In this document: positions 2,716 to 63,588 of the stretch, piece after piece | How the letters are laid out: every line of letters begins with the position of its first letter | How positions within the stretch are numbered: the stretch's first letter is position 1 | DNA from: Ferruginibacter sp. | Lineage (GTDB): Bacteria > Bacteroidota > Bacteroidia > Chitinophagales > Chitinophagaceae | Reading direction: 5' to 3' | DNA: 64,000 nucleotides | Assembly (NCBI GenBank): GCA_040003235.1 | Contig: JBDUCW010000005.1 | Location: forward strand, 1,665-65,664 | Translations under genes and position numbers: made by a program | The notes under the pieces: model-generated | What the model was told of the DNA's origin: nothing | The model's database searches: none | What the model saw: the letters and a program-made list of their open reading frames with translations, nothing else

Positions 2716-4061
2716 CGCAATACCATTTGCCGGTCGGCATCTAATTTAATTAATATAAAAATAAGTACGGTAAAAGTAAGCAATGATGATCCACCATAAC
2801 TGATCAATGGCAGAGTAATACCGATCACGGGAGCGAGCCCGATCGTTACACATATATTTACAGATATGTGAAAAAATATGATGCCGGCGACGCTGTATGC
2901 ATATACACGGCTGAAAGTACTCCGTTGTCTTTCTGCAACAAAAACAATCCGCAACAAAAATCCAAGATAGATCAGCATTAATAAAGTGCTTCCCCAGAAA
3001 CCAAAGTTCTCACCCACGGAAGTAAAAATAAAATCTGTATGTTGCTCCGGCACAAAATCACCCTGTGTCTGCGTTCCCTTTAAATAACCTTTTCCCCAGA
3101 AGCCACCCGAGCCAATAGCTATTTTTGATTGCAATACATTGTATCCCTGCTGTGCTTTCTTTTTTTCTCTTTCTTTAATTTCTGCATCAGATATAACTGC
3201 ATTCTTATCTGCAAATGGATTATCCTTGCCTACCATACTGAATATTCTTTCTGCCTGGTATCCTTTCAATACATGTTTAAATGCAAAAGGAACGCCCACT
3301 GCTACAAATAAACTGGCGAAGAGCCAGCACCCGAGAATCAATACAAGAAGGCCATTGTTTCTTTTTACCTGCCGTTTTAAAAAAAATATGACGAGTGCTG
3401 CAACTGCCGAAAATGCAATCACCAACGGCACCCAGGGAATCAATAAACTGACCACCAGTAAAACTGCAAGTGCAACACCAGCGATCAAATAAGCAGGCGA
3501 TAATCCTTCCCGGTACATTGGAATTAAAAAAGCAAAATATACAAGTGCCAGTCCTGTTTCGCCCTGGAGTACAGAAAATACAGCCGGCGTAAAAACGATG
3601 GCGGCGGCAACCAGTTGTGCTTTTTGTTTTTTAAAATCTGTTTCATTTTGGGAAAGATATTTCGCCAGTGCAAGGGATGCAAATATCTTACAAACTTCCA
3701 CGGGTTGAAGATTCATAAAACCCAGTGGTATCCAGCTTTTAGAGCCTTTTATTTCTTTGCCCACACCAGGAACGAAGGTCGCCAGGATCAAAATAATGCC
3801 CGCTAAATAAGAAAGGTTAGCAGTTGCCGTAAAAAATTTACTGTCCGTCAGCAAAATAAAAACAGCCAGTATTACACAGGCTCCAAAATAAAACAATTGC
3901 TTGCTGTAATTTTTTTTGAAGCCCAGCAAACTTTGAATCACATTGTCAGAACTGCGGTATTCCACTGAAAAAATGCAAAGCAAACCGATGATCACGAGAA
4001 TGGCGTAAAGCCAAACCATGAGCCAGTCAATTCCTTTTGATATGGATGGATTTTTATACAC
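2712..4061 (-). CDS. rodA: Rod shape-determining protein RodA (SEDS family peptidoglycan polymerase)
   Basis: About 10 TM helices. FtsW/RodA/SpoVE motifs (QPVEVCKI, EQHTDFIF, LPLISYGGSS). GTG start. Lies downstream of mrdA. Confidence 0.9.
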   Translation of the reverse strand: MYKNPSISKGIDWLMVWLYAILVIIGLLCIFSVEYRSSDNVIQSLLGFKKNYSKQLFYFGACVILAVFILLTDSKFFTATANLSYLAGIILILATFVPGVGKEIKGSKSWIPLGFMNLQPVEVCKIFASLALAKYLSQNETDFKKQKAQLVAAAIVFTPAVFSVLQGETGLALVYFAFLIPMYREGLSPAYLIAGVALAVLLVVSLLIPWVPLVIAFSAVAALVIFFLKRQVKRNNGLLVLILGCWLFASLFVAVGVPFAFKHVLKGYQAERIFSMVGKDNPFADKNAVISDAEIKEREKKKAQQGYNVLQSKIAIGSGGFWGKGYLKGTQTQGDFVPEQHTDFIFTSVGENFGFWGSTLLMLIYLGFLLRIVFVAERQRSTFSRVYAYSVAGIIFFHISVNICVTIGLAPVIGITLPLISYGGSSLLTFTVLIFILIKLDADRQMVLR

Positions 4062-21921: not shown

Positions 21922-23856
21922 TCAGGTGGTGCTTATTTTTTTTGTGGTGACTTTTATCACGCCGTTTTTCCCTTTATCTCCATATTCTTTTTCAGCTTTT
22001 GCACCGCTCAATATGTCGATTGATTGTATTGATTCCGGTTTTAATTTATCTTTTTCTCCCGCGGTTGCTTCTTTGCCATCAATAATGTACAGGGCATTGG
22101 CAGTAAGTCCGCCAAGTGGTTTCCCTGTTACAGTGATCGGCACCGAAGGTGAACTGGCTGTTGCTTTTGAAGAAGATGTCGGGTACCCCATAACTGTTAC
22201 TTCGTCAACAGATGATTTTACATTTGTTACAGCTGATACTTTTACTCCGGTTAAATTTGTAGCAGCAGCAATTGGATGCCCTGCTACTGTTACTTCGCGG
22301 ACTGCAGGACTTGCACTTTTCACAGCAGCAATTTTTACTCCGGTAACTGTTACAGCCGGGGCTGTTGCTATTTCCACTATCTCCCCAGGCGCAACATTTT
22401 CAGTAATTGTATTGGCAATTTTTGGAGTACTGTGTACTTCAACGATAGCCGGACGAACTGCTGTACCGCTATTTTTTTTGGTGGTGATCTTGATCACACC
22501 ATTTTGCGCAAGCTCACCATAGATCGCTATTGCTTCTTTATCTTTCAATACATCTATTCTTTCAATATCATTGGGATTGATGGAAGAAAGCACCGTGAAC
22601 GGCATTTTCCTTTCATCAACAATGATTAAGGGTTGCGGATGAGTTGGAACATCGGCTGTGCCATTTTCTTCCGGTTGTGGAGGAGCCAATGGAGCGGCCG
22701 GTGGTGGTGGCGGTAAAGGAAGCTCTCCGTATTTTTTTTCAAACGCAGCTTTCTGCATTTTGCTTTTCAAATCAAATTTTTCAACCTTTCCGTTTTTTTG
22801 TTTTACAGTGACAACAGAATTATTAACATCAACACTTTCTACATTAGCGGGTAATTCTTTGGGTGCAGCCGGTGGTGGTGGCGGCGGCGGCGGGGGAGGA
22901 GTTGGTGGTGGTGGCGGAGGAGGAACAGTGTCTGTAACATTCACCTGTGCAGAATACAGATTGTTTTTAAAACCAACCTGTTTTTCCCGGAAGGCCAAAA
23001 GAAGTGCTGCCGCCAGCGGCAGCACAAACAGAAATTTGGCAAGGTGCAACTTTGCACTCTTTAATTTGTTCATCATGACTATACGTTTTTTTAGTGAAGA
23101 AAAATTGAACTTCTGTGCTATACTGAATTGAGAAACTCCGATTACTTTTAATAAAAGATATTGATATTGTTTTTTGTCAATGCCGTTTTCAAGTACATTA
23201 TTATCAGCAATGAATTCGAGGTTCTGCCGGATGGCATGCCGTATCATCCAGGCAAAGGGATTGTACCAGTTAAGGATGCAGAGTATTTCTGCAAACAGAA
23301 TATCGATGGTGTGTTTTTGTTTCACATGAACAAATTCATGCCGGATCACTTCTTTAAATCCTTCTTCTTTCTGCAGATCATAATTCAGAAAAATGGAATT
23401 ACCGATGGAGAAAGGAATGATATTCTTTTTTACGCGGTAGATCTTAATCCCTTCTTCATTAATGAGGATCGCTTTTCTTTTGATCTGCAAAAAGGAAATA
23501 TATTGTACCAACAGCCTTACCGATAATATAATGGCACCGGCCGACAAAATAAGGGGAAGTGCCTGCAGAATTAATCCGTATACTGAATGGGTTTGATCAT
23601 ACGATCCTTTAATAGCCTGCAATTGCGAAAAATCTACACTGGGCAACAATTTTAAAACGCTGGTATCTTCTTTAGGTGCATTAAATAATGAAGCCACATT
23701 GATAAAGGGAATGTAAAAACAAAGCAGGCTGTTAAATAATAAGTACCACCTGTTCCAGTTATAAAAAGTAAGGCGGCGCAATACTGTTATGTAGAATAAA
23801 TAGACAACTGCCAGGCTGATGGAAAGTTTTAATAGATATTCAAAAATAAATTGCAT
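21922..23856 (-). CDS. M56 family (BlaR1-like) membrane metallopeptidase with atypical extracytoplasmic domain
   Basis: HEFVH zinc motif after 3-4 TM helices. Two poly-proline linkers. Two TonB-receptor plug-like motifs ([31 protein letters not shown] and [31 protein letters not shown]). Confidence 0.85.
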
Positions 23857-27831: not shown

Positions 27832-29778
27832 TTACCGGATCAGCATGAAGGTTCCTTTCTGCTGCTGTGGTTTATTGTTGATGTCTTTATAATTGATATA
27901 ATAAATAAATGCACCCATCGGTTGAACAGATCCTTTGTAGCGCCCATCCCAGCGATTGTTCATTGTCGAACTTTTAAAAACAATTTCTCCATAACGGTTA
28001 TAGATTTCCATATTGAATGATTCGGGAACTTTTCCCAATGGTCCAAAGAAATCATTTAGTCCATCGCCATTCGGCGTAAAAGCGTTGGGTGTAAAAACCA
28101 CGGCGTCTTTTAAAACAACCACAGTAAAATAATCAGTGATTGAGCAACCGCTCGCTATTGTGTTGGTGGCTGAATATACCGTAGTGGTAATGGGGGTTGC
28201 AATGGGATTGGTACAATTCGTACAGCTTAATGACTGATGACTGGCCCATATAACAGTTCCGTTTCCACTAAAAGGAAGCGTAATGCTTTGTCCTGCGAAA
28301 ATGCTGTCGGATTTTTTCAGCTGATCAAAAGGGCCGCCAATTGCAACAGGTTTATACTTTACAAAAACAGAATCATAACCGCATGCATCTTTCAGGGTGT
28401 CGGTTACCGGGATGAAAGTATTGATATTGCAAACCGTTGAATCTTTTGAAATTGTTTTTGGGTTTTTTAATTTGATGATACCAAAATCTGTATCGCCAAA
28501 ACCATTACTGAAATCGCCATCCCCCGAATCTGTATCGCCTGCCAGGTAATATTCATCTGCAGCAGTATTGCCGATAATGCAATGAAGATTATCATTGCCT
28601 GTCCCGCCATAATTTTTTTTCCAGATAAGGTTTCCGGACGGACTTAGTTTTACTACCCAGTAATCGCCCATTCCTTTTGCACCTGTTACATCAACATCAT
28701 TCGAATAAGAAATGCCGCCGATGATATAACTGCTGTCTTTATCTGTAATGACTGAATTGGCGTATTCGGCATCGGTGCCGCCCAGAACCCTTTGCCAGTT
28801 GAGGTTTCCGGCCTGGCTTATATTCAATACCCAATAATCCTGGCTGCCTTTTGCGCCGTTCACATCTCCATCATTTGAAGTAGTATAGCCTGCGAGTGTA
28901 AGAGAACCATCAGTACCAACCGTCATGGCATAAGCAACATCATTCTGTGATCCGCCATATATTTTACTGAAGATTTTATTTCCATTCAGATCGAGCGCCA
29001 GTAACCATACGTCATAATTTTTTTGATTGGGAGGAATATCACCATCGGTTGAATTGGCATAACCCGCTAAAAATATTTTGCCATTGATGATCTTCATATC
29101 AAGCAGTTCATCATTTTTACTTCCACCAAAACATTTACTCCATAGCAGTGCACCCGTTGAGGAGACCTTCATCAGCACTGCATCTGTATAACCACCGGTT
29201 CCATGATTGCCGCTGATATCACCATCATTGGAAGTTGAAGAAGCTGTTATATAATATCCACCATCATTACTGATAGTAATATGGTTGCCGATATCAAGTC
29301 CGTTGCCGCCATATCTTTTCTGCCACTCCAAAGTTCCGGATGCGCTGAATTTTAAAAGCCAGACATCTTTTGTTCCGCCAAAGCCAGGAGTAACATCACC
29401 ATCTGTTGAATTGGTTTCGCCGAGCACGATAAAACCCCCGTCAGCAGTCTGTTCCAGGTCTCTTGCACTTTCATATCCTGTGCCGCCTAATGATTGCTGC
29501 CATTCTATAGTACCGCAACTGTTTAATTTGATGATCCACAGATCCCAATAGTCCCTGTTTGCATGTGACCCAACCTGCCCGTCTTTGGAATCTGTATATC
29601 CGGCAGCAACAGTGCCAGCATCTTTAGTGAATTTAATAACAAAAGGAATATCAATACCGGAACCTCCATAACGGAGCGCCCAGTTATTTGCAGGTATCTG
29701 CGCAACTATAAAATTGCACACCAGCAGATAACATAATACAATAAAAAAATATTTTTTTGGCAAAGGATGGATTTTCAT
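27832..29778 (-). CDS. Seven-repeat (beta-propeller-like) protein with T9SS type B C-terminal domain
   Basis: Start moved to the ATG at 29778 (MKIHPLPKKYFFIVL... signal peptide). Seven ~58-aa repeats (YGG..D......DGG....G.T.S.DGD......G..D.W..K....G...W). C-terminal FTPNGDGLNDFF gliding-motility CTD. Confidence 0.8.
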   Translation of the reverse strand: MKIHPLPKKYFFIVLCYLLVCNFIVAQIPANNWALRYGGSGIDIPFVIKFTKDAGTVAAGYTDSKDGQVGSHANRDYWDLWIIKLNSCGTIEWQQSLGGTGYESARDLEQTADGGFIVLGETNSTDGDVTPGFGGTKDVWLLKFSASGTLEWQKRYGGNGLDIGNHITISNDGGYYITASSTSNDGDISGNHGTGGYTDAVLMKVSSTGALLWSKCFGGSKNDELLDMKIINGKIFLAGYANSTDGDIPPNQKNYDVWLLALDLNGNKIFSKIYGGSQNDVAYAMTVGTDGSLTLAGYTTSNDGDVNGAKGSQDYWVLNISQAGNLNWQRVLGGTDAEYANSVITDKDSSYIIGGISYSNDVDVTGAKGMGDYWVVKLSPSGNLIWKKNYGGTGNDNLHCIIGNTAADEYYLAGDTDSGDGDFSNGFGDTDFGIIKLKNPKTISKDSTVCNINTFIPVTDTLKDACGYDSVFVKYKPVAIGGPFDQLKKSDSIFAGQSITLPFSGNGTVIWASHQSLSCTNCTNPIATPITTTVYSATNTIASGCSITDYFTVVVLKDAVVFTPNAFTPNGDGLNDFFGPLGKVPESFNMEIYNRYGEIVFKSSTMNNRWDGRYKGSVQPMGAFIYYINYKDINNKPQQQKGTFMLIR

Positions 29779-37750: not shown

Positions 37751-37960
37751 ATGAATACTGTTATTGGAAAAAAGATCCGCCTCGCAAGGCTTGAAAAAGG
37801 TTATTCGCAAAAAAACATTGCAGACCTATTATATATGGAGCAGCCATCTTTTTGCAGACTGGAAACCGGAATGCGCGAGATCAGGGTATCTGAACTGGAA
37901 AAGATCGCGGTGATTTTAGAAAAACCGGTCAACTATTTTTTCTTTGATAATGCCGGATAA
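37751..37960 (+). CDS. XRE family helix-turn-helix transcriptional regulator (69 aa)
   Basis: IRLARLEKGYSQKNIADLLYMEQPSFCRLETGMREIRVSEL is a canonical HTH_3 pattern. Divergent from the 36855-37478 cluster. Confidence 0.85.
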   Translation: MNTVIGKKIRLARLEKGYSQKNIADLLYMEQPSFCRLETGMREIRVSELEKIAVILEKPVNYFFFDNAG

Positions 37961-37982
37961 TTGGTAACAGTTAACTATTTTT

Positions 37983-38780
37983 TTATCGTATACCACCTGT
38001 CTTTTCAGCTTCTTTAAAATAACTGACTGTATTGCTGTCCACACTATTTATTTCTTCAAGCCCCCAGCTTTGCTCTATCCTGGGCATCTTAAAAGTATAT
38101 CCAGGAAATGTTCTTGCTTCGGTTTCAGTATGCGCAAAAACCATTGTCACTTTCTTTAAACTATCCGTAACCGGGGAAAGATGAAAAGCCGGATTTTTAA
38201 TATCAGCGCTGTAAACAAATAAGCCATTGCCTTTTTTATCACTGTCAGCGCCTCTTCCCAGCAACTGGTATCTTTCCTGATACCCCTTGCTTTTAGTGCC
38301 GCTATCAGAAAAGGTTAAGGTATGTATCGATTCCGGAAAGATGGCGTCAATGTTTATTTGAGCATACCACTCACGTTTCAAAAAAGAATCAACGTTGATC
38401 TTTTGTACGGGGTTATCGTTTTTTAGGGCGTAATACAGGCCTGATGAACTTCCTTTTGCCCGCAATAAAACAAAATGGTCCAGCTCCATATGCCAGGGTT
38501 TATCTTGACTGTTATGTTTAAGAACCTGGTGACCCGCTTTATACAGTATCCAGTTTTGATAAAAATATATTTCTGCTGTTAACGTGTCTGATCTTGTAAA
38601 ATCGTTGAACGCAGCAATTGTAGCAATACTTGGGGAGCAGCTATAAGTGAGTTTATATCCTTTTATCTCCATTTCATTGCCGGTATGCTTTGTGATTGAC
38701 TGTTTTCGTGAAGTATAATAACAATTACTGAGAAAGAATAAGCACAGCCACACGAATAAACCGGACAGTCTGTGGAGCAT
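37983..38780 (-). CDS. Hypothetical lipoprotein
   Basis: Lipobox-like LFFLSNC. 265 aa, no known motif. Confidence 0.4.
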   Translation of the reverse strand: MLHRLSGLFVWLCLFFLSNCYYTSRKQSITKHTGNEMEIKGYKLTYSCSPSIATIAAFNDFTRSDTLTAEIYFYQNWILYKAGHQVLKHNSQDKPWHMELDHFVLLRAKGSSSGLYYALKNDNPVQKINVDSFLKREWYAQINIDAIFPESIHTLTFSDSGTKSKGYQERYQLLGRGADSDKKGNGLFVYSADIKNPAFHLSPVTDSLKKVTMVFAHTETEARTFPGYTFKMPRIEQSWGLEEINSVDSNTVSYFKEAEKTGGIR

Positions 38781-38911
38781 ATTATTTTTTTATACAAAAT
38801 AACTTCTTTTTTATAAAATAGATAGATTAGTTATCGGCAACAAATAACGCAATCGAATAAACCATTCTAAATTCGAATATCTATCTAAAAAACACGCTGA
38901 CTAAATCAATT

Positions 38912-39109
38912 ATCTGCGAAAACATTCGAATTGCACGCCTGGTAAAAGGTTACTCCCAAAAAAATATGGCTGATATGCTGTTTATAAAACAGCCTTCTTA
39001 TTGTAAGCTCGAAACGGGTATGCGGGAAATCAAGGTATCTGAACTGGAATAGATCGCAATGATTTTGGAAAAGCCGGTGAATTATTTCTTCGCTTCCATG
39101 TCTATATAA
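38912..39109 (+). pseudogene. Decayed paralog of the XRE regulator (in-frame TAG, no ATG start)
   Basis: Translates to ICENIRIARLVKGYSQKNMADMLFIKQPSYCKLETGMREIKVSELE*IAMILEKPVNYFFASMSI. The TAG at 39050-39052 replaces the Lys codon of the intact copy (SELEKIAVILEKPVNYFF). No ATG in frame upstream. Confidence 0.6.
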
Positions 39110-55100: not shown

Positions 55101-57324
55101 TCGTGCGATCACTTTGGATCAACGCCCCATTAACGGATCCACCAATGCGGATAGTCTAATCTTATCACTCAATGGCTCTTTGTTCGGCGCGCAATCAAGG
55201 TTAGAATTCTATTATAAGAATCATGGAGAAGATAATTTCCCAGGGAATAAAGTCTGGATGCGGGCAAGTAATACCGATCCATGGACAGAGGCGTATGATC
55301 TGTATGCCAACGAGGCCGGCATCAACCAATGGAAATTTGCAAAGATCAATATCAATGATGTGCTGAGCCCCGCAACTCCCTCTTCTACTTTTCAGATTAA
55401 ATTCGGACAGGAAGGTTTTACGTCAGCCAACTCTGTAGTGCAGGAACAGGATTATGATGATGGTTATACTTTTGATGACATCAGTATATTGCCTGCGCAA
55501 AATGATGTGGCATTGGTGGAGGTGGTTTCACCGGGCAAAGCCGGTTGTGGTCTTACTGCAACAACACCAGTAACAATTGCTATAAAAAATTATGCAAATG
55601 CTGCTGTAAGTAATGTTGAGGTAAATTACCGTATCAATAGCGGAACAGTAGTTACAGAAACCATTCCTTCCATTGCAGCCAATACCAGCATACAATATAC
55701 ATTTACTGCAACTGCAGATATTTCTGCGTACACCGATTATAATTGCGATTTCTGGTTAAGCGCTCCTGCCGATACTTATAAAGGCAATGACAGCATGCTG
55801 AACTATACTTTTCATAACAGCCCGGTCATCAGCAGTTTCCCATATTTACAGGGATTTGAATCCAATGACGGTGGCTGGTATGCGAAGGGAAACAACAACA
55901 GCTGGCAATATGGTTCGCCTGCAAAAACAATTATTAATAAAGCAGCGAATGGAACCAAGGCATGGGTAACCAACCTCACGGGTAATTACAATAACAATGA
56001 ATTGTCTTATCTCTATTCTCCCTGTTTTGATATCAGTTCTTTATCACATCCTGTTCTTTCATTCAGTCATATTTACCAGGTAGAAACAGACTATGATTAT
56101 AACTGGGTGGAATATTCAACCGACGGCGGATTGACCTGGCTTAAGCTTGGTGCGGTGGGCGATGGTACCAACTGGTATGATGATGTGACAACGCAAAGAT
56201 TCCGTGCATCCAGAACAACCTGGCATGTTGCGAGCGTTGATATCCCTACGGTTTCGGGCAGTGTGCGTTTCCGTTTTGTAATGTTTGGCGATGGCGGATT
56301 GACTTATGAGGGCGTTGGGATAGATGATATTCATATTTTTAATAAACAAAGTATTTATACCGGGAATCCGATCAGTAGTGGTTTGTCGCAGACTGTTAAT
56401 TCCAATGCGTGGATTAATTTTAATGATGTGAATGGAAAAAGAATTGCATCGGTCAATTCATTCGGGCAGAATCTTGGTGTTACAAACGTACAGGTCTATC
56501 CTTATTCAGGTCCGCAACGCACCAGCAACAATCAATATTATGCCGACCGTAATATTGTGATCCAGCCCACCAATCAACCGGCGTCGAATGTTGGCGTTCG
56601 TTTTTATTTTACAGATGCAGAAGCAAAAAATTTAATTGCAGCCGCCGGATGTCCTTCCTGCATAACAGTGAATGATCCTTATGAACTGGGTTCAACACAA
56701 TATCATGGCAGCATTGCTGAAGAAAATGGTTTGCTGGATGATGATCAACCTGATTCTTTCCGTTTTATTCTTCCGGCAGGAACTGATATCATTCCTTATG
56801 ACAATGGTTATTATGCCGAATTCACGGTAAACAGTTTCAGTGAATTCTGGCTGAGCAAAGGTATACTGGGCGCTGGAAGTAATTGTGCAGGTAGTACCGT
56901 TAGCTATACCGCAGCAGCAGGTGGTACAACTTATCAATGGCAGGAAGACACTGGATCTGGTTTTACAAATATCAGCAACGGAACCAATTATTCAGGAGCA
57001 GCAACAGCTGTATTACAACTGATCGCGTTACCCACTTCTGCATCCGGAAATAAATATCGTTGTCTTGTAAATGGAATAGCAGATACGCCAAGAACACTAC
57101 TTTTTAAAATGACCTGGAATGGAAGTACAGATACCAATTGGTTTAATCCGGCCAACTGGAGCTGCGGCATATTGCCCGATCAATATACGGATGTGGTTAT
57201 ACCTGGTACGCTTGTCAATTACCCGGTACTGAATGCCAATGCAGCAGTAAGAAGTGTACAGTTGCAGTCAGGTGTGTCAATTACCGTTAGTACAGGAGTA
57301 GTGCTGGATATTAAGGGGAGGTAA
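52162..57324 (+). CDS. Very large secreted S8 (subtilisin-family) serine peptidase with multiple accessory beta-domains
   Basis: Signal peptide. Asp (VGIGDNA), His (HGTHTSGTLAG) and Ser (GGTSMAAPVVTG) triad. Two MAM/choice-of-anchor-like segments (PYTENFES..., PYLQGFESNDGGW...). 1720 aa. Confidence 0.9.
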   Translation: MKKNYFFLLLTFISLNLAAQNERPARFTNGEFVTGNNISRQTFKQNDLRTALYGENYFVLIQFSILPGAIQQQQLKTAGITLAQYLPGNAYLAIINKTFNFSIARNYQIGSINIIPAYLKIDKIIADNNSFDDKKNESYFAVTLFPGTDKKIAEAALLQLHAQVVHTKFTDAPVIFIEKNKNIIDSIAALSFVSYINLQHIKDQTLNHNDVGTHSITALQSPSGRNLDGRNVAVGIGDNAEISTHIDFTGRLINRVFYYPDYHGTHTSGTLAGGGIIDPRYHGMAPKAPIISQWFSDILTNTPAYVTDYNMVATNNSYHSEALGCSGSTVYDVLSNYVDAQALNLKQVLHVIAAGNDGTFACSPYPASFATVKSGWQCAKNVITVGNLVGQDYSISFSSSKGPVQDGRIKPEIVANGTNTWSTFPDNTYGLFGGTSMAAPVVTGTVSLLQQRYRQLHSGTNGSSALMKAVLCNGADDLGNAGPDYTFGFGMLNARRAVEAIETNRYTLSTVSNGGNNTQNISVPAGARRLKVMLCWTDKEAAANAAISLVNDLDLTVTEPSSALHRPLVLNSDPAHVTDTAIERRDSLNNIEQVVIDNPAAGTYTLNINGHAVPFGPQDYVTTYQIDMPSVTVEYPFGGETMVPGETENLRWSAFGNETNDYTVEYSANGGANWLTKDTVAAGSRTFAWTVPATATNNGLIRVSRLGTALSGSSTYPFIILGQPVVTATIPCVGYATLSWPSITSATSYDICQLKGDSMKVIGNTTGTSFLVSGLDKYKTEWLAVIAKNGTVSGRRSIAQSVIANTGTCSLSTFQNDLAIDTILTPTTTRFGTVSNTTTVRISNRGSVAVSGPYTVQFSTGGAASTPETINVSIPPASSLDYTLTNSFSISPGSGIYNLKFWVNNAADLYHENDTAYKVFQTFANDPVTLPYTENFESFPNRELTSGELGFGDIHFDFAPSTDRGRLRTFVNSGFAHSGNRAITLDQRPINGSTNADSLILSLNGSLFGAQSRLEFYYKNHGEDNFPGNKVWMRASNTDPWTEAYDLYANEAGINQWKFAKININDVLSPATPSSTFQIKFGQEGFTSANSVVQEQDYDDGYTFDDISILPAQNDVALVEVVSPGKAGCGLTATTPVTIAIKNYANAAVSNVEVNYRINSGTVVTETIPSIAANTSIQYTFTATADISAYTDYNCDFWLSAPADTYKGNDSMLNYTFHNSPVISSFPYLQGFESNDGGWYAKGNNNSWQYGSPAKTIINKAANGTKAWVTNLTGNYNNNELSYLYSPCFDISSLSHPVLSFSHIYQVETDYDYNWVEYSTDGGLTWLKLGAVGDGTNWYDDVTTQRFRASRTTWHVASVDIPTVSGSVRFRFVMFGDGGLTYEGVGIDDIHIFNKQSIYTGNPISSGLSQTVNSNAWINFNDVNGKRIASVNSFGQNLGVTNVQVYPYSGPQRTSNNQYYADRNIVIQPTNQPASNVGVRFYFTDAEAKNLIAAAGCPSCITVNDPYELGSTQYHGSIAEENGLLDDDQPDSFRFILPAGTDIIPYDNGYYAEFTVNSFSEFWLSKGILGAGSNCAGSTVSYTAAAGGTTYQWQEDTGSGFTNISNGTNYSGAATAVLQLIALPTSASGNKYRCLVNGIADTPRTLLFKMTWNGSTDTNWFNPANWSCGILPDQYTDVVIPGTLVNYPVLNANAAVRSVQLQSGVSITVSTGVVLDIKGR

Positions 57325-57352
57325 AAAATACTGAATAAGGAGCAAAAAAATC

Positions 57353-57710
57353 TTGAACAAGGAACAAGTCCACCCGGACGACCCGGTCGGACGGGGAATG
57401 TCGAACAATGAACTTTAGAATAGTAAAAAGGTTTTAATTGAGTGTCTAAAATAGAATTATCAATATTAAATTCTCAAGTTGAAAAGCTTCTGACCTTGAA
57501 CATTGAGTGTTGATTCTTGATTATTGAGCATTTTTACTTTACTCTTTTATCCAGAAAATATTTTCAGGACTGTCAGACGGAGACAGTTGAACAAACGTTT
57601 AGTTCTGCAAAATAAAATATTCTTCAACTTCTTTATTTCTTATTAATTATTTCTTATTGTATTCTATATGCTTTCGTGATTCTACATTCCCTGTTCCTTG
57701 TTCGATATTC
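57353..57710. repeat. MITE/BIME-like mosaic element bounded by family A inverted repeats, with internal family B and C words
   Basis: Left end TTGAACAAGGAACA[27-nt GC-rich insert]GGGAATGTCG (57353-57403). Right end CTACATTCCCTGTTCCTTGTTCGATATTC (57682-57710) is its reverse complement without the insert. B words at 57494-57530, C hairpin at 57569-57587. No ORF. Confidence 0.55.
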
Positions 57711-57905
57711 ACTTCTTCTGATTAAACATCCATTCCATCATTGGGGATTCGTTGGTATCAAGTAAATTTATAAAAGTAATGGCTAATCTTAATGGAAAGG
57801 ATATAAACCTGTTTTATAAAAGTATTGTTGTACATAATGAATTCCTGAATTCGTCATTCTGAATTCATAATTATTCCTATCTTCCTTCCCGGAAAAAATA
57901 TATTT

Positions 57906-58625
57906 ATGGCATTACAACCGTGGCGTACAGGAAAAGTTATTAAAATAGAAGATCATACACACAACACCCGGCGTTTCTGGATCGAAGTTCCTGAATTAAA
58001 CTCATTCGATTTTATTCCCGGGCAGTTTGTCACACTGGACCTACCCATTCATGAAAAGCCCAACAAACGATGGCGAAGTTACTCCATTGCAAGTTGTCCT
58101 GATGGCACAAATGTTTTTGAACTGATCATCGTCCGTTCTGCTGATGGAGCAGGCACGGCTTATCTTTTTGATCATGTGATAGTGGGCAGTGAATTGACTT
58201 TGCGCGGACCGCAGGGCGTTTTTATTTTGCATGAACCATTGGAGAAAGATATTTTTTTTATCTGCACAGGCACTGGTATTGCACCTTTTAACAGCATGAT
58301 CCATCATATAAAAAACAACAGCATTTCTTTTAAGAATATTTACCTCGTTTTCGGTTGCAGAAAAAAAGGAGACCTGCTTTATTTTGATGAACTCGATCAA
58401 CTGCAGAAAGAATTACCAGGCTTTAAATATATTCCTGTATTGTCACGCGAAGAATGGGATGGGCGTAGTGGTTATGTTCATCCGGCGTATGAAGAATTCT
58501 GTACTGAGAAACAGCCCGCTGTCTTTTTAATATGCGGATGGAAAGGAATGATTGACGAAGCGAGACAGCGTATTCTCGCGATGGGATATGATAATAAAAG
58601 TATTCATAGAGAAGTATATGGTTAA
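57906..58625 (+). CDS. Ferredoxin-NADP reductase-type FAD/NAD(P)-binding oxidoreductase
   Basis: RxYS FAD motif (RWRSYSIAS). NAD(P)-binding GTGIAPF. 239 aa two-domain FNR fold. Confidence 0.8.
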   Translation: MALQPWRTGKVIKIEDHTHNTRRFWIEVPELNSFDFIPGQFVTLDLPIHEKPNKRWRSYSIASCPDGTNVFELIIVRSADGAGTAYLFDHVIVGSELTLRGPQGVFILHEPLEKDIFFICTGTGIAPFNSMIHHIKNNSISFKNIYLVFGCRKKGDLLYFDELDQLQKELPGFKYIPVLSREEWDGRSGYVHPAYEEFCTEKQPAVFLICGWKGMIDEARQRILAMGYDNKSIHREVYG

Positions 58626-58627
58626 AA

Positions 58628-58744
58628 GTTCATGGCTGATAGATCATAGTTCATAGGAAGAACTTTCTAAATGTTTTTTCGATGAGATGAAAGCACTGCA
58701 ATGAATCATACTTCGCCATGAACCATCAACAATGAACTATGAAC
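58628..58744. repeat. Family H words (GTTCATGG / GTTCATAG and their complements) flanking the FNR-nuoA gap
   Basis: GTTCATGGCTGATAGATCATAGTTCATAGG (58628-58657) and GCCATGAACCATCAACAATGAACTATGAAC (58715-58744). The second block runs into the first annotated nuoA codons. Confidence 0.6.
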
Positions 58745-59136: not shown

Positions 59137-59143
59137 AACGTTC

Positions 59144-59187
59144 GTTTAAGGGTTTAAGAAGTTTAAAAGGTTTAATAGGTTTAATGC
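59144..59187. repeat. Family G tandem array, five units of GTTTAAnnn (8-9 nt period)
   Basis: Units start at 59144, 59152, 59161, 59170 and 59179. A sixth copy (GTTTAAGTGG, 59121) lies inside the last nuoA codons. Confidence 0.8.
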
Positions 59188-59205
59188 ACTTACTATCATG
59201 ATTTG

Positions 59206-59265
59206 TTTTTCTAATTCGTGAATCTGATTTTTCTAATTCGTGAAATTCGTGTTTTAAAATTCGTG
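59206..59265. repeat. Family E array: 2 x TTTTTCTAATTCGTGAA plus two further ATTCGTG words
   Basis: 17-mers at 59206-59222 and 59228-59244 are identical. ATTCGTG recurs at 59245 and 59259. Ends 8 nt before the nuoB ATG. Confidence 0.8.
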
Positions 59266-59273
59266 TTATAAAA

Positions 59274-59813: not shown

Positions 59814-59816
59814 TAA

Positions 59817-59945
59817 GTTTTATGTTATACGTTATAAGTATGATTAAGAGGAGTGTTGAATTTTTAATTTTCAAAGAGAATAAATCAAGTATAATAAAGT
59901 GGTAACAAATTAAAAACATCCAACGTAAAACGTATAACGTAAAAC
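59817..59945. repeat. Long-range inverted repeat (family F) spanning the nuoB-nuoC gap
   Basis: 59817-59832 GTTTTATGTTATACGT pairs with 59930-59945 ACGTATAACGTAAAAC: 16 bp with one G-U, enclosing 97 nt. Confidence 0.8.
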
Positions 59946-59964
59946 TTACAACGTCAAACTCTTC

Positions 59965-60423: not shown

Positions 60424-60435
60424 AAACGTTTCATC

Positions 60436-60470
60436 GTTGAGCATTGAATATTGAACATTATGCATGAATA
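60436..60470. repeat. Family B words (GTTGAGCATTGAATATTGAACATTATGCATGAATA)
   Basis: Same TTGAACATTGA / TTGAGCATTGA vocabulary as 57494-57530 and 63513-63545. In the nuoC-nuoD gap. Confidence 0.7.
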
Positions 60471-60495
60471 ATCTATGGTCAAATAAAAGCAATTG

Positions 60496-61611: not shown

Positions 61612-61618
61612 TGTTGTA

Positions 61619-61755
61619 AGTTATAAGTTGTAGGTTATAAGTTAAAACCTACTGATTCAAAGATCTTTTTATAATAGCAATTTTTTTTAATAAAGGAATG
61701 AATAAAAAAATGAAATTAACAACTCAACAAAACTTATAACTTAAAACCTATAACT
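61619..61755. repeat. Long-range inverted repeat (family F) spanning the nuoD-nuoH gap
   Basis: 61619-61643 AGTTATAAGTTGTAGGTTATAAGTT versus 61731-61755 AACTTATAACTTAAAACCTATAACT: 22/25 complementary, 87 nt between. A local 7-bp hairpin GTAGGTT..AACCTAC sits at 61631-61653. Confidence 0.8.
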
Positions 61756-61757
61756 CT

Positions 61758-62834: not shown

Positions 62835-62846
62835 ATACAACGTCTT

Positions 62847-62932
62847 GCGTTTGCTGTTTGGCGTTGAGTATCTAAAGAGCAGGATACTTTGCAACAGAAA
62901 GTTCCTAACACCAAACACCAAACAGCAAACGC
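62847..62932. repeat. Perfect 15-bp long-range inverted repeat (family I) in the nuoH-nuoI gap
   Basis: 62847-62861 GCGTTTGCTGTTTGG and 62918-62932 CCAAACAGCAAACGC. Nested 6-bp hairpin AGTATC..GATACT at 62867-62888. The right flank repeats CCAAAC words. Confidence 0.85.
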
Positions 62933-62948
62933 CAAACAATAAGTTATT

Positions 62949-63456: not shown

Positions 63457-63460
63457 TTAG

Positions 63461-63574
63461 TTCGAAATTCGACATTCTTTGTTCCTTGTTCGATATTTTT
63501 TTGACCGATCAACCTGAACATTGAACATTGATTGTTGAATATTTGTATTTCCGGTCTGACGGTCTCCGTCTGAC
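63461..63574. repeat. Mosaic of family A, B and C words in the nuoI-nuoJ gap
   Basis: A: TTCGAAATTCGACATTCTTTGTTCCTTGTTCGATATT (63461-63497). B: CCTGAACATTGAACATTGATTGTTGAATATTTG (63513-63545). C: GTCTCCGTCTGAC (63562-63574) is the reverse complement of 57572-57584. Confidence 0.8.
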
Positions 63575-63588
63575 TACCAAATAAAAGA

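Follow-up and report, generated by a model that had tools for sequence, protein, structure and literature searches.

Repetitive extragenic palindromic (REP) sequences, bacterial interspersed mosaic elements (BIMEs) and MITEs (miniature inverted-repeat transposable elements) influence operon expression and genome stability in bacteria and are known mostly from Proteobacteria, with REP types usually being species- or genus-specific. The Correia/NEMIS elements of Neisseria and the enterobacterial ERIC sequences are long-hairpin MITEs of ~90–150 bp, present in high copy near genes and inside operons, at sites that can be filled or empty. Bacteroidota also carry invertons, i.e., invertible promoters flanked by inverted repeats. 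Here we analyze a 64,000-nt stretch of Ferruginibacter sp. (contig JBDUCW010000005.1, positions 1,665–65,664; hereafter the window), in which an intergenic segment at 57347–57711 is bounded by inverted copies of a dispersed repeat that we call family A. We consider it probable (roughly 0.65) that this segment is not one transposable unit but a BIME-like mosaic, in which dispersed palindromic repeats are present as decaying and nested copies; the family-A repeats themselves are probably non-autonomous.

REPs and BIMEs have been described as extragenic palindromes found preferentially behind genes and in the gaps between cistrons, with small palindromes nesting in longer ones (Di Nocera 2013, PMC3733652). 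The CGTC-tagged REPs, which are reported in Bacteroidetes and likewise nest in longer palindromes, have no known dedicated transposase, and are recognized by an unpaired CGTC head, a stem of 8–9 bp opening with two A/T pairs, a loop of 4–5 nt and a CCA-like tail (PMC3733652). Heptamer repeats of the TAACTGA type have been found in Beggiatoaceae, Cyanobacteria and a few Bacteroidetes (MacGregor 2015, PMC4679880).

The segment lies in gap 1 (57325–57905), a non-coding stretch of 581 nt that exceeds every other gap of the window in length and separates the gene of a 1720-residue S8 peptidase (stop codon at 57324) from that of a 239-residue FAD/NAD oxidoreductase (start codon at 57906). Directly downstream of the oxidoreductase gene is an 11-subunit-type nuo operon for respiratory complex I (nuoA, B, C, D, H, I and J), whose nuoI–nuoJ spacer we term gap 2. 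The window is Chitinophagaceae-like, with NuoI 75–80% identical to that of Ferruginibacter-type loci and with the named oxidoreductase homologues coming from Ferruginibacter. Loci of other genomes are denoted by L-numbers, 1.36 Mb of such related loci serve as the comparison set, and all fold z-scores refer to predicted pairing. An open reading frame (ORF) scan found no hidden gene in gap 1, all ORFs being ≤43 residues, and Rfam covariance models returned nothing at gathering score in the window, with chance-level matches alone at E up to 10. The modules of the two gaps are as follows.

57347–57366, + strand: left (L-type) family-A arm, outer portion, AAATCTT GAACAAG GAACA (profile match 57348–57415)
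57367–57393, + strand: 27-nt GC-rich hairpin nested in the A core, from a second repeat family (local fold −16.6 kcal/mol)
57394–57415, + strand: left A arm, inner portion, GGGAATGTC GAACAAT GAACTT (sequence and profile match)
57494–57530, + strand: module B, TTGAACA TTGAGTG TTGATTC TTGATTA TTGAGCA (five TTGAnnn heptads with GAACA anchors)
57569–57587, + strand: module C, small hairpin ACTGTC-AGACGGA-GACAGT (weak fold, z = −0.9)
57623–57668, + strand: T-rich heptad tract TTCTTTA TTTCTTA TTAATTA TTTCTTA TTGTATT, extending the right arm inward (lag-7/lag-14 tracts)
57669–57711, + strand: right (R-type) A arm, reverse complement GAATATC GAACAAG GAACAGG GAATGTA GAATCAC GAA
63415–63457, + strand: AATTAAG/AATTAAA 14-mer tract, beginning within the last nuoI codons
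63458–63503, + strand: third A arm (R-type), then a T7 run (profile E = 1e-8, single arm)
63514–63543, + strand: copy of module B, CTGAACA TTGAACA TTGATTG TTGAATA (predicted pairing with the adjacent A arm)
63558–63578, + strand: copy of module C, inverted and heptad-periodic, GTCTGAC GGTCTCC GTCTGAC

A profile search of the window with the canonical family-A unit (nhmmer) gave three matches only, each to a single arm, at 63458–63497 (E = 1e-8), 57669–57711 (E = 3e-6) and 57348–57415 (E = 4e-3 to 0.012, with the 27-mer as an insertion), and revealed no compact family-A copy anywhere in the 64 kb. The sequence 57682–57710 is CTACATTCCCTGTTCCTTGTTCGATATTC, and its reverse complement is the left copy at 57349–57366 plus 57394–57403, interrupted at 57367–57393 by the 27-mer AGTCCACCCGGACGACCCGGTCGGACG, of which 20 of 27 positions (74%) are G+C. 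Once the 27-mer is set aside, the two arms have identical 20-nt cores (the GAACAGGGAATGT variant) and match at ~31 of 42 aligned positions; they face each other ~250 nt apart and pair in the minimum-energy fold of both strands (z = −3.0 and −3.4). The 23-mer consensus ATCGAACAAGGAACARRGAATGT occurs without mismatch at 57684–57706 and 63472–63494, both on the minus strand, where shuffled sequences yield an expectation of 0, and the third A copy is 86% identical across 37 nt (63461–63497). All sequences and coordinates quoted in the initial annotation of this locus are present as stated, and the features are non-random. Its reading of the segment as a 360-bp MITE with terminal inverted repeats held in part: the facing inverted arms are real, but a single element bounded by them is not supported, given a canonical unit of ~89 nt and three arms that are each solo. 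The ~250-nt interior of gap 1 has no match elsewhere in the window or in the comparison set, save for short B-type and T-rich heptad words. The left arm, with an A7 run (57343–57349) in front of it, begins 23 nt past the stop codon of the S8 peptidase gene. Two of the three A arms adjoin such 7-nt homopolymers at their outer ends, at 57343–57349 (CAAAAAAATCTTGAAC...) and 63497–63503 (...GTTCGATATTTTTTTG); these two junctions are 92% complementary across 25 nt, and runs of this kind are absent from canonical copies elsewhere.

Module B had been annotated as a family of its own. We regard it instead as a diverged L-type arm of the family-A superfamily: its GAACA anchors recur every 7 nt as in the left A arm, it is predicted to pair with an A arm, and tracts of type B neighbour A arms in several further genomes. 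The predicted pairing is that of gap 2, where the right A arm folds onto the adjacent B through GAACA/TGTTC anchors (minimum free energy −44.4 kcal/mol, z = −3.4). Taken alone, the B 11-mer is weakly non-random (8 matches with ≤1 mismatch vs. 3.9 expected), and its matches sit in clear heptad tracts at 57494–57530, 60437–60454 and 63514–63543; a 13-mer of module B, TTGAGTGTTGATT, is also found upstream of the orthologous gene in L202. The 13-mer of module C (GTCAGACGGAGAC) has exactly two copies, 57572–57584 (+) and 63562–63574 (−), vs. 0.01 expected, so that its inverted recurrence stands as annotated, but as a repeat family it is confined to this genome, with no copy in the 1.36 Mb of other loci. 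Gap 1 and gap 2 differ in how modules A, B and C, the GC hairpin and the AATTAAG tracts are put together, and this supports the earlier view of modules from dispersed repeat families in variable order and orientation, as in BIMEs. T-rich tracts resembling 57623–57668 are also seen in L163 and L202 upstream of the orthologous gene, and the same AATTAAG/AATTAAA tract also lies 3' of nuoI in L202, the closest relative.

Beyond the window, family A is abundant in related genomes. In a scan of one genome per species with the 20-mer GAACAAGGAACARRGAATGT, whose counts are lower bounds, we found at least 117 matching stretches in at least 66 assemblies, which together hold ~150 exact copies and ~300 arms with ≤3 mismatches; the right arm 57669–57711 alone has ~196 matches in other loci. 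Among the matches listed, almost all belong to Chitinophagaceae/Chitinophagales, with carriers in Ferruginibacter, Flavisolibacter, Foetidibacter, Paracnuella, Filimonas, Sediminibacterium, Flaviaesturariibacter, Chitinophaga-labelled metagenome-assembled genomes (MAGs) and some Saprospiraceae MAGs. Foetidibacter luteolus YG09 has at least 15 stretches, and the density in the source window is 3 A arms per 64 kb. A few matches carry other labels or lie on viral contigs (L018, L031, L083, L117 and L199–L201, including MAGs of Gammaproteobacteria, Planctomycetota, Neomarinimicrobiota and Flavobacteriaceae). Within this set, L200 has A arms flanking a GC-rich interior, while L083, L199 and L201 look like chance matches since no partner arm follows in the printed context. 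As for carriage by phages, the 20-mer was found in just 3 viral contigs, two of them without a partner arm in the sequence shown.

An alignment of 31–35 copies defines the canonical unit, a compact ~89-nt palindrome whose arms measure ~31–38 nt. Its left arm reads (G)AATATC-GAACAAG-GAACAAG-GAATGTy-GAATnnn-GAAGT, followed by a loop that often includes TCCGATCAT, and the unit ends with ATTCnnnATTCCTTGTTCCTTGTTC-ATTATT(C), the 18-nt part of the right arm being ATTCCTTGTTCCTTGTTC. The outer 18-bp stem (GAACAAGGAACAAGGAAT / ATTCCTTGTTCCTTGTTC) is invariant across genera in the aligned copies, and because it never varies, no pair of the aligned stem exhibits compensatory change. Partner arms that lay outside the search selection retain ~94% per-position conservation across the outer 18 nt. 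The terminal heptads GAATATC and GAATAAT are conserved, unpaired and mutually non-complementary, which makes the unit directional, and GAA anchors keep a strict 7-nt spacing across 5–6 heptads as other positions vary. The A arm is not itself self-complementary and is free of an unpaired tag of the GTAG or CGTC type. Solo arms make up 59% of the total, i.e., they are without a recognisable partner within 110 nt. As read from these alignments, the conservation is one of sequence and not of mere pairing ability, which we take as the strongest hint of a sequence-specific partner. Apart from tRNAs, Rfam gave no gathering-score match in 18 loci with canonical hairpins. The family-A motif string is in no searchable paper, targeted searches giving only general background on REPs and heptamer repeats, and the family appears to be undescribed so far.

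Compact copies exhibit a marked positional bias, with 39 of 48 located directly behind stop codons or tRNA genes: 31 lie 7–34 nt from the nearest ORF 3' end, and a further 8 follow tRNA genes, namely tRNA-Leu(TAG) in seven cases and tRNA-Val in one (L102). The tRNA-Leu(TAG) site is orthologous in seven assemblies (L020:6304-6382, L033:6697-6783, L041:4231-4301, L057:4239-4309, L061:1740-1817, L090:6435-6512 and L111:3029-3133). At this site, the hairpin begins 4–10 nt past the tRNA 3' end, and its arms differ at 0–1 of 36 positions between assemblies with flanks of only ~75% identity (74–96% across the seven), the interiors diverging as well. A solo arm is also seen 12 nt upstream of tRNA-Arg(CCT) in L019, L106 and L108. 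Arm density per kb is 2.5 in convergent gaps, 1.4–1.6 in co-directional gaps and 1.25 in divergent gaps. Copies are found within operons as well, such as one that fills the nuoC–nuoD spacer from stop to start in 7 metagenome contigs, and Ferruginibacter-type nuo operons hold up to four A copies (L052).

Comparison of orthologous sites reveals presence/absence polymorphism of canonical A copies. L045, L052 and L113 carry a copy at one site, which is precisely empty in L095; L026, L036 and L088 do so at another, which L051 has empty; at a third, the full hairpin of L066 corresponds to the left half only in L062 and L087. Depending on the genome, the same site can be occupied by an A copy, by a variant of the GAATAAG type or by an unrelated hairpin rich in GC. 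Sites that bear A hairpins in other genomes can also carry a third GC-rich hairpin family (the CCCCTnnnAGGGG / GGGGGAG type), as in L002 (~3030–3060), at the orthologous site of L036 (~2400–2600) and in L113. Between L036:6161-6252 and L088:5034-5125, a 37-nt interior is inverted with one substitution, while arms and flanks remain colinear, which shows flipping between inverted arms. For gap 2, the orthologous nuoI–nuoJ gap is 2–5 nt in four Chitinophagaceae and 106–124 nt of mutually unrelated filler in four others, long versions of the gap spanning 106–160 nt, and judging from these orthologues gap 2 is clearly a lineage-specific fill. For gap 1, orthologues at 68–76% protein identity have upstream gaps of mostly 12–250 nt that are unrelated and lack A arms. 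The nearest oxidoreductase homologue among 5.8 billion proteins is 79% identical (contig L202), and L202 shares with gap 1 words of 10–13 nt only, even as its nuo operon has the same arm-spacer-arm layout, with similar gap lengths and different heptad words.

We also observed left and right A arms 475–529 nt apart that bracket a gene for a four-helix-bundle protein of 121–124 residues (Pfam 23S_rRNA_IVP, E = 1e-12) at one orthologous locus of four genomes (L062:141-656, L087:3296-3811, L069:2069-2638 and L066:7254-7795), a layout that resembles hairpin-bounded rRNA intervening sequences. A remnant of such a gene in the window was considered and rejected, tblastn with the four-helix-bundle protein having found none.

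The 27-nt GC-rich interruption of the left arm proved to be a separate inserted element, to be assigned by its sequence to a second conserved family of GC hairpins. This family has five copies in at least four genomes and the consensus G(C/T)CC(G/A)CCCGG-loop-CCGkTCGGACGG, of which GCCCGCCCGG is the left half and which forms a stem of 10 pairs (4 + 4 (+2) with an internal loop), all G/C-rich. One member (L109) interrupts the A core where the window copy does (GAACAA|GGAAT), another lies inside an A-like tract (L081), and a third lies in a nuoI–nuoJ gap between AAAGTTG heptads (L036). The boundary of the insertion is ambiguous by 1 nt, such that excising 57368–57394 restores the canonical core GAACAAGGAACAAGGAATGT and the alternative gives the GAACAGGGAATGT variant. 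Like CGTC-tagged REPs, the 27-mer belongs to the small GC-rich stem-loops of ~27–30 nt that are able to nest in longer palindromes, and its reverse complement begins with CGTC. Unlike them, however, it has this CGTC base-paired within the stem, its first two pairs are not A/T, its stem is broken by an internal loop and it lacks a CCA tail, and we accordingly rejected it as a CGTC-tagged REP.

Modules A, B and C all resolve into imperfect 7-nt units, a feature that the initial annotation did not mention. A sliding lag-7 scan of the window detects 23 tracts, nearly all intergenic and made of several different words. Pooled over 34 gaps (6.5 kb), identity is 0.323, 0.333 and 0.312 at lags of 7, 14 and 21, against a baseline of ~0.285; the lag-7 z-score is 7.1 in intergenic DNA, vs. 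period 3 only in coding DNA. Heptad periodicity is therefore a general property of the intergenic DNA of this genome. Side by side with the gaps described above, heptad tracts are present in all the nuo intercistronic gaps listed (58626–58731, 59137–59273, 59814–59964, 60424–60492, 61612–61757 and 62835–62948), with differing words: GTTCATA, GGTTTAA, AATTCGTG 14-mers, GTTATAA/ACGTAAA and CCAAACA. Inverted heptad arms surround an AT-rich spacer of ~40–100 nt in the gaps between the oxidoreductase gene (annotated as FNR-like) and nuoA, nuoB and nuoC, nuoD and nuoH, and nuoH and nuoI; several of these arm pairs run from the stop codon to near the next start codon, and the nuoB–nuoC gap has a 19-bp long-range stem. 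At array-type loci of other genomes, the A core is tandemly amplified as (GAACAAGGAACAAGGAATGTA)n 21-mers or (GGAACAA)n 7-mers (L058:4206-4267, L109 ~3100–3200, L080:1430-1476 and L055:3810-4110; also L059 and L089), and in Foetidibacter luteolus it alternates with CACTCAC/CATTCAC heptad tracts in units of 60–110 nt (mostly 75–90).

Set against the described systems, family A resembles the REPs and BIMEs of Enterobacteria and Pseudomonas in being extragenic, enriched behind genes and depleted in divergent gaps, in combining its motifs in variable order and orientation, and in hosting small palindromes within longer ones. It differs in having arms that are heptad runs of 35–40 nt rather than GC-rich stem-loops of 20–40 nt, in the absence of an unpaired GTAG/CGTC tag, in a sequence that is common to several genera, and in that no REP-associated tyrosine transposase (RAYT) was found among the ORFs inspected near arms and arrays. 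With the Correia/NEMIS and ERIC MITEs it shares the size class, long terminal inverted repeats, a short asymmetric core, high copy number, gene-proximal and intra-operon positions, and filled vs. empty sites; unlike them, it has no definable target-site duplication and no parent insertion sequence seen with the same ends, its ends GAATATC and GAATAAT are non-complementary, and its arms are heptad-periodic. The TAACTGA repeats and the cyanobacterial short tandemly repeated repetitive (STRR) sequences are likewise built on a 7-nt unit, restricted to intergenic DNA, represented by several unit families per genome and placed near gene ends. Those, however, are perfect direct repeats of one unit, whereas here the heptads are imperfect, have only the anchor GAA/GAACA in common, form inverted hairpin arms and include a core that is one fixed three-heptad word; head-to-tail arrays of one 7-nt unit are confined to some loci (L058, L080 and L109), the units elsewhere being imperfect and mixed.

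Several other explanations bear on the same evidence. That 57347–57711 is a single non-autonomous MITE of ~360 bp, with A copies as its terminal inverted repeats and a later 27-nt insertion, would account for the facing arms with their identical 20-nt core, for their pairing on both strands and for the presence of two of the window's three arms in one gap. We nevertheless find it quite unlikely, given a canonical unit of ~89 nt rather than 360, profile matches that cover each arm separately with its inner heptads included, an interior found nowhere else, the 59% of arms that are solo in other genomes, and the lack of a visible flanking duplication; left-right pairs 230–260 nt apart without ORFs do exist in L005 and L025, but they consist of tandem A-like units and have no common interior. 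The idea that the repeats arose purely by slippage in place, as local low-complexity heptamer expansions like the cyanobacterial STRR/LSSR repeats and with no dispersal, draws on the general heptad periodicity of the intergenic DNA, on the many heptad words that differ between relatives at one gap and on the existence of tandem arrays. Independent slippage cannot, however, explain an identical 20-mer and asymmetric ~89-nt unit at non-orthologous sites in at least 66 assemblies, and the precise filled vs. empty sites speak against it too; as an account of the whole it is improbable, being contradicted for family A and possible for the genome-specific tracts, namely module C and the GTTATAAG and CCAAACA tracts. 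An invertible promoter switch, in which the inverted A arms are recombination sites and the ~300 bp between them, upstream of the oxidoreductase-nuo operon, change orientation, is extremely improbable. Gap 1 of this Bacteroidota genome does resemble an inverton in that inverted repeats enclose ~260–325 bp that lie upstream of an operon, and an interior flip between A arms did occur in evolution (L036 vs. L088). Yet there is no TAnnTTTG (Bacteroidota −7) motif on either strand of 57414–57672, the conserved promoter-proximal motif adjoins the oxidoreductase start codon outside this segment, an independent Logan assembly has the same orientation (a single orientation in two assemblies), no recombinase is found among the 20 window ORFs scanned against Pfam, and canonical interiors of ~20–40 nt are too short for a promoter.

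A different possibility is that the repeats are domesticated RNA hairpins that mark or protect mRNA 3' ends, undergo RNase III-type processing or couple cistrons in Bacteroidota, which lack Shine-Dalgarno sequences. We hold this to be a real though minority possibility, as we do its local version, compatible with a mobile origin, in which the S8 peptidase transcript would be insulated from the oxidoreductase-nuo operon. It fits the 39 of 48 compact copies that abut gene or tRNA 3' ends, the copy kept behind tRNA-Leu(TAG) in 7 assemblies with flanks 74–96% identical, the nuo intercistronic gaps filled from stop to start, the position of the window's left arm 23 nt past the S8 stop codon, and the arm-spacer-arm layout kept in L202 with different sequence. 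On the other hand, the sense strand has no stability advantage (10 of 28 favour sense and 18 of 28 antisense, p = 0.06), no pair shows compensatory change, both core orientations occur relative to the upstream gene (7 vs. 5), orthologous gaps can be empty and most arms are solo. Selection at the RNA level was rejected on the first two of these counts. Nor is there a U-tract: the tail heptad is GATATTC or ATTATTC and the longest T run is 2 in 62 of 96 tails, with the exception of the T7 run after 63497 and a T7 on the minus strand before 57350, whereas the same genomes carry ordinary terminators with a GC stem and a T run. Intrinsic terminators as such were rejected, with zero terminator-like sites in a scan of 57200–58000, no T run in canonical tails and copies inside nuo operons. 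Sequence-reading proteins with regularly spaced sites are known, with HutP reading UAG-N4 triplets and TRAP reading GAG/UAG triplets, and by analogy the heptads might be a binding array in which a multimeric protein reads GAA/GAACA every 7 nt on RNA or single-stranded DNA, the hairpin being secondary. The strict 7-nt spacing of GAA anchors over 5–6 heptads, the conservation of sequence rather than pairing, the persistence of solo arms and the tandem 7-mer/21-mer arrays of L058, L080 and L109 are in keeping with this, as is the regulator binding proposed for heptamer repeats of other phyla (MacGregor 2015, PMC4679880). It is very unlikely all the same, with no candidate protein identified and arms on both strands relative to transcription, and many unrelated heptad words occur within one genome, which a single sequence-specific binder does not explain. 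A combined scenario, which we consider speculative and rather unlikely, would make the 18-bp arm GAACAAGGAACAAGGAAT the recognition site of a dedicated, putative Chitinophagaceae protein and the hairpins a lineage-wide, semi-domesticated punctuation of transcripts behind tRNAs and between cistrons such as those of nuo, controlling RNA processing or translation coupling, with slippage and template switching making new arm words.

Under the reading that we prefer, namely a BIME-like mosaic of decaying and nested dispersed palindromes, family-A copies would colonize further gaps. Most would land immediately after stop codons and tRNA genes, in the few positions tolerated behind genes, and some within operons. 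Dispersal is probably carried out in trans by a putative enzyme that reads the invariant 18-mer. Spreading would be followed by decay through loss of an arm, slippage and expansion of heptads, flips of the interior between arms and nesting of other small palindromes, with slippage and template switching between arms presumably maintaining arm similarity. The window would then display late stages of this decay: in gap 1, two facing solo arms ~250 nt apart with unique, AT-rich and partly heptad-periodic filler between them and a 27-nt GC hairpin of the second family nested in the left one, and in gap 2, a third arm predicted to pair with a diverged arm (B). At the locus itself, the sole immediate consequence would be that DNA or RNA pairs over a long range within the untranslated stretch that separates the S8 peptidase gene from the oxidoreductase-nuo operon. 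The gap-1 structure would be either two solo arms or a much-expanded old copy.

A number of observations weigh against this preferred reading. No target-site duplication is definable at the empty sites and none is visible around 57347–57711; at the empty site of L095, the T-rich flanks (TTTTT ... TATTT vs. TGTTTTT) would allow a duplication blurred by divergence. Pfam assigns housekeeping domains or no match to the 20 window ORFs and, as in the initial annotation, no transposase domain, and none is obvious by eye beside the tandem arrays. Genes that lie between A arms (nuo genes and the one 23S_rRNA_IVP gene) or next to arrays look ordinary, with no parent insertion sequence in this limited, not genome-wide sample, and no RAYT is present among the ORFs between nearby arms or beside arrays, although no genome-wide search for Y1 transposases was made. 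The source genome is represented by this contig alone, and its nearest relative is only 79% identical in the neighbouring protein. The gap-1 arms are perhaps a true pair, sharing the minority GAACAGGGAATGT variant under the ambiguous parse of the initial annotation, and from gap lengths the chance of two of three arms falling into one gap is ~13%, and of their facing each other ~3%. Finally, the invariant stem and the retention behind tRNA-Leu in seven assemblies also fit a selected cellular function, and the same layout with different words in L202 hints at selection on architecture. A single-copy structured RNA or a decayed gene remnant, which the initial annotation had named as ways of being wrong, finds no support at the locus, and further copies and empty-site polymorphism of family A are both described above.

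Other features of the window were also noted. A palindrome ATAATGAATTC-N16-GAATTCATAAT is located at 57834–57871, 35–70 nt upstream of the oxidoreductase start codon, close to a direct repeat TTTATAAAAGTAWTG at 57767 and 57813 (region 57767–57827), and the two may serve the oxidoreductase-nuo operon as operators. Relatives have a conserved promoter-proximal motif, TTTGTAnCTTACC, which reads CTATCTTCCTTCC in the window. Coding regions contain unrelated repeats: a GGT/GGC-rich tract encoding glycine runs within 22678–22923, a ~177-nt periodic repeat in four copies (28862–29426), and a 182-nt pair that is 75% identical and 1149 nt apart (37761–39091).

The kind of element described here is known, as extragenic palindromic repeats and MITEs are; what is new is the building of the arms from heptads, a stem invariant across genera, and the absence from what we inspected of REP and MITE hallmarks such as the tag and a transposase. 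The 581-nt gap itself is repeat debris, a degenerate example of the family and not a new gene or riboswitch. In practical terms, family-A elements inflate intergenic gaps, break short-read assemblies and can pass for regulatory RNAs in the annotation of Bacteroidota. What sets the family apart is an 18-bp stem that is identical across many soil and freshwater genera of Chitinophagaceae, inside essential operons and behind tRNA genes, in elements that are acquired and lost, that flip and that a second mini-palindrome has invaded. So strictly constant a sequence, without compensatory change, points to a conserved, putative protein partner, which, if found, would bear on how REP-like repeats spread and persist.

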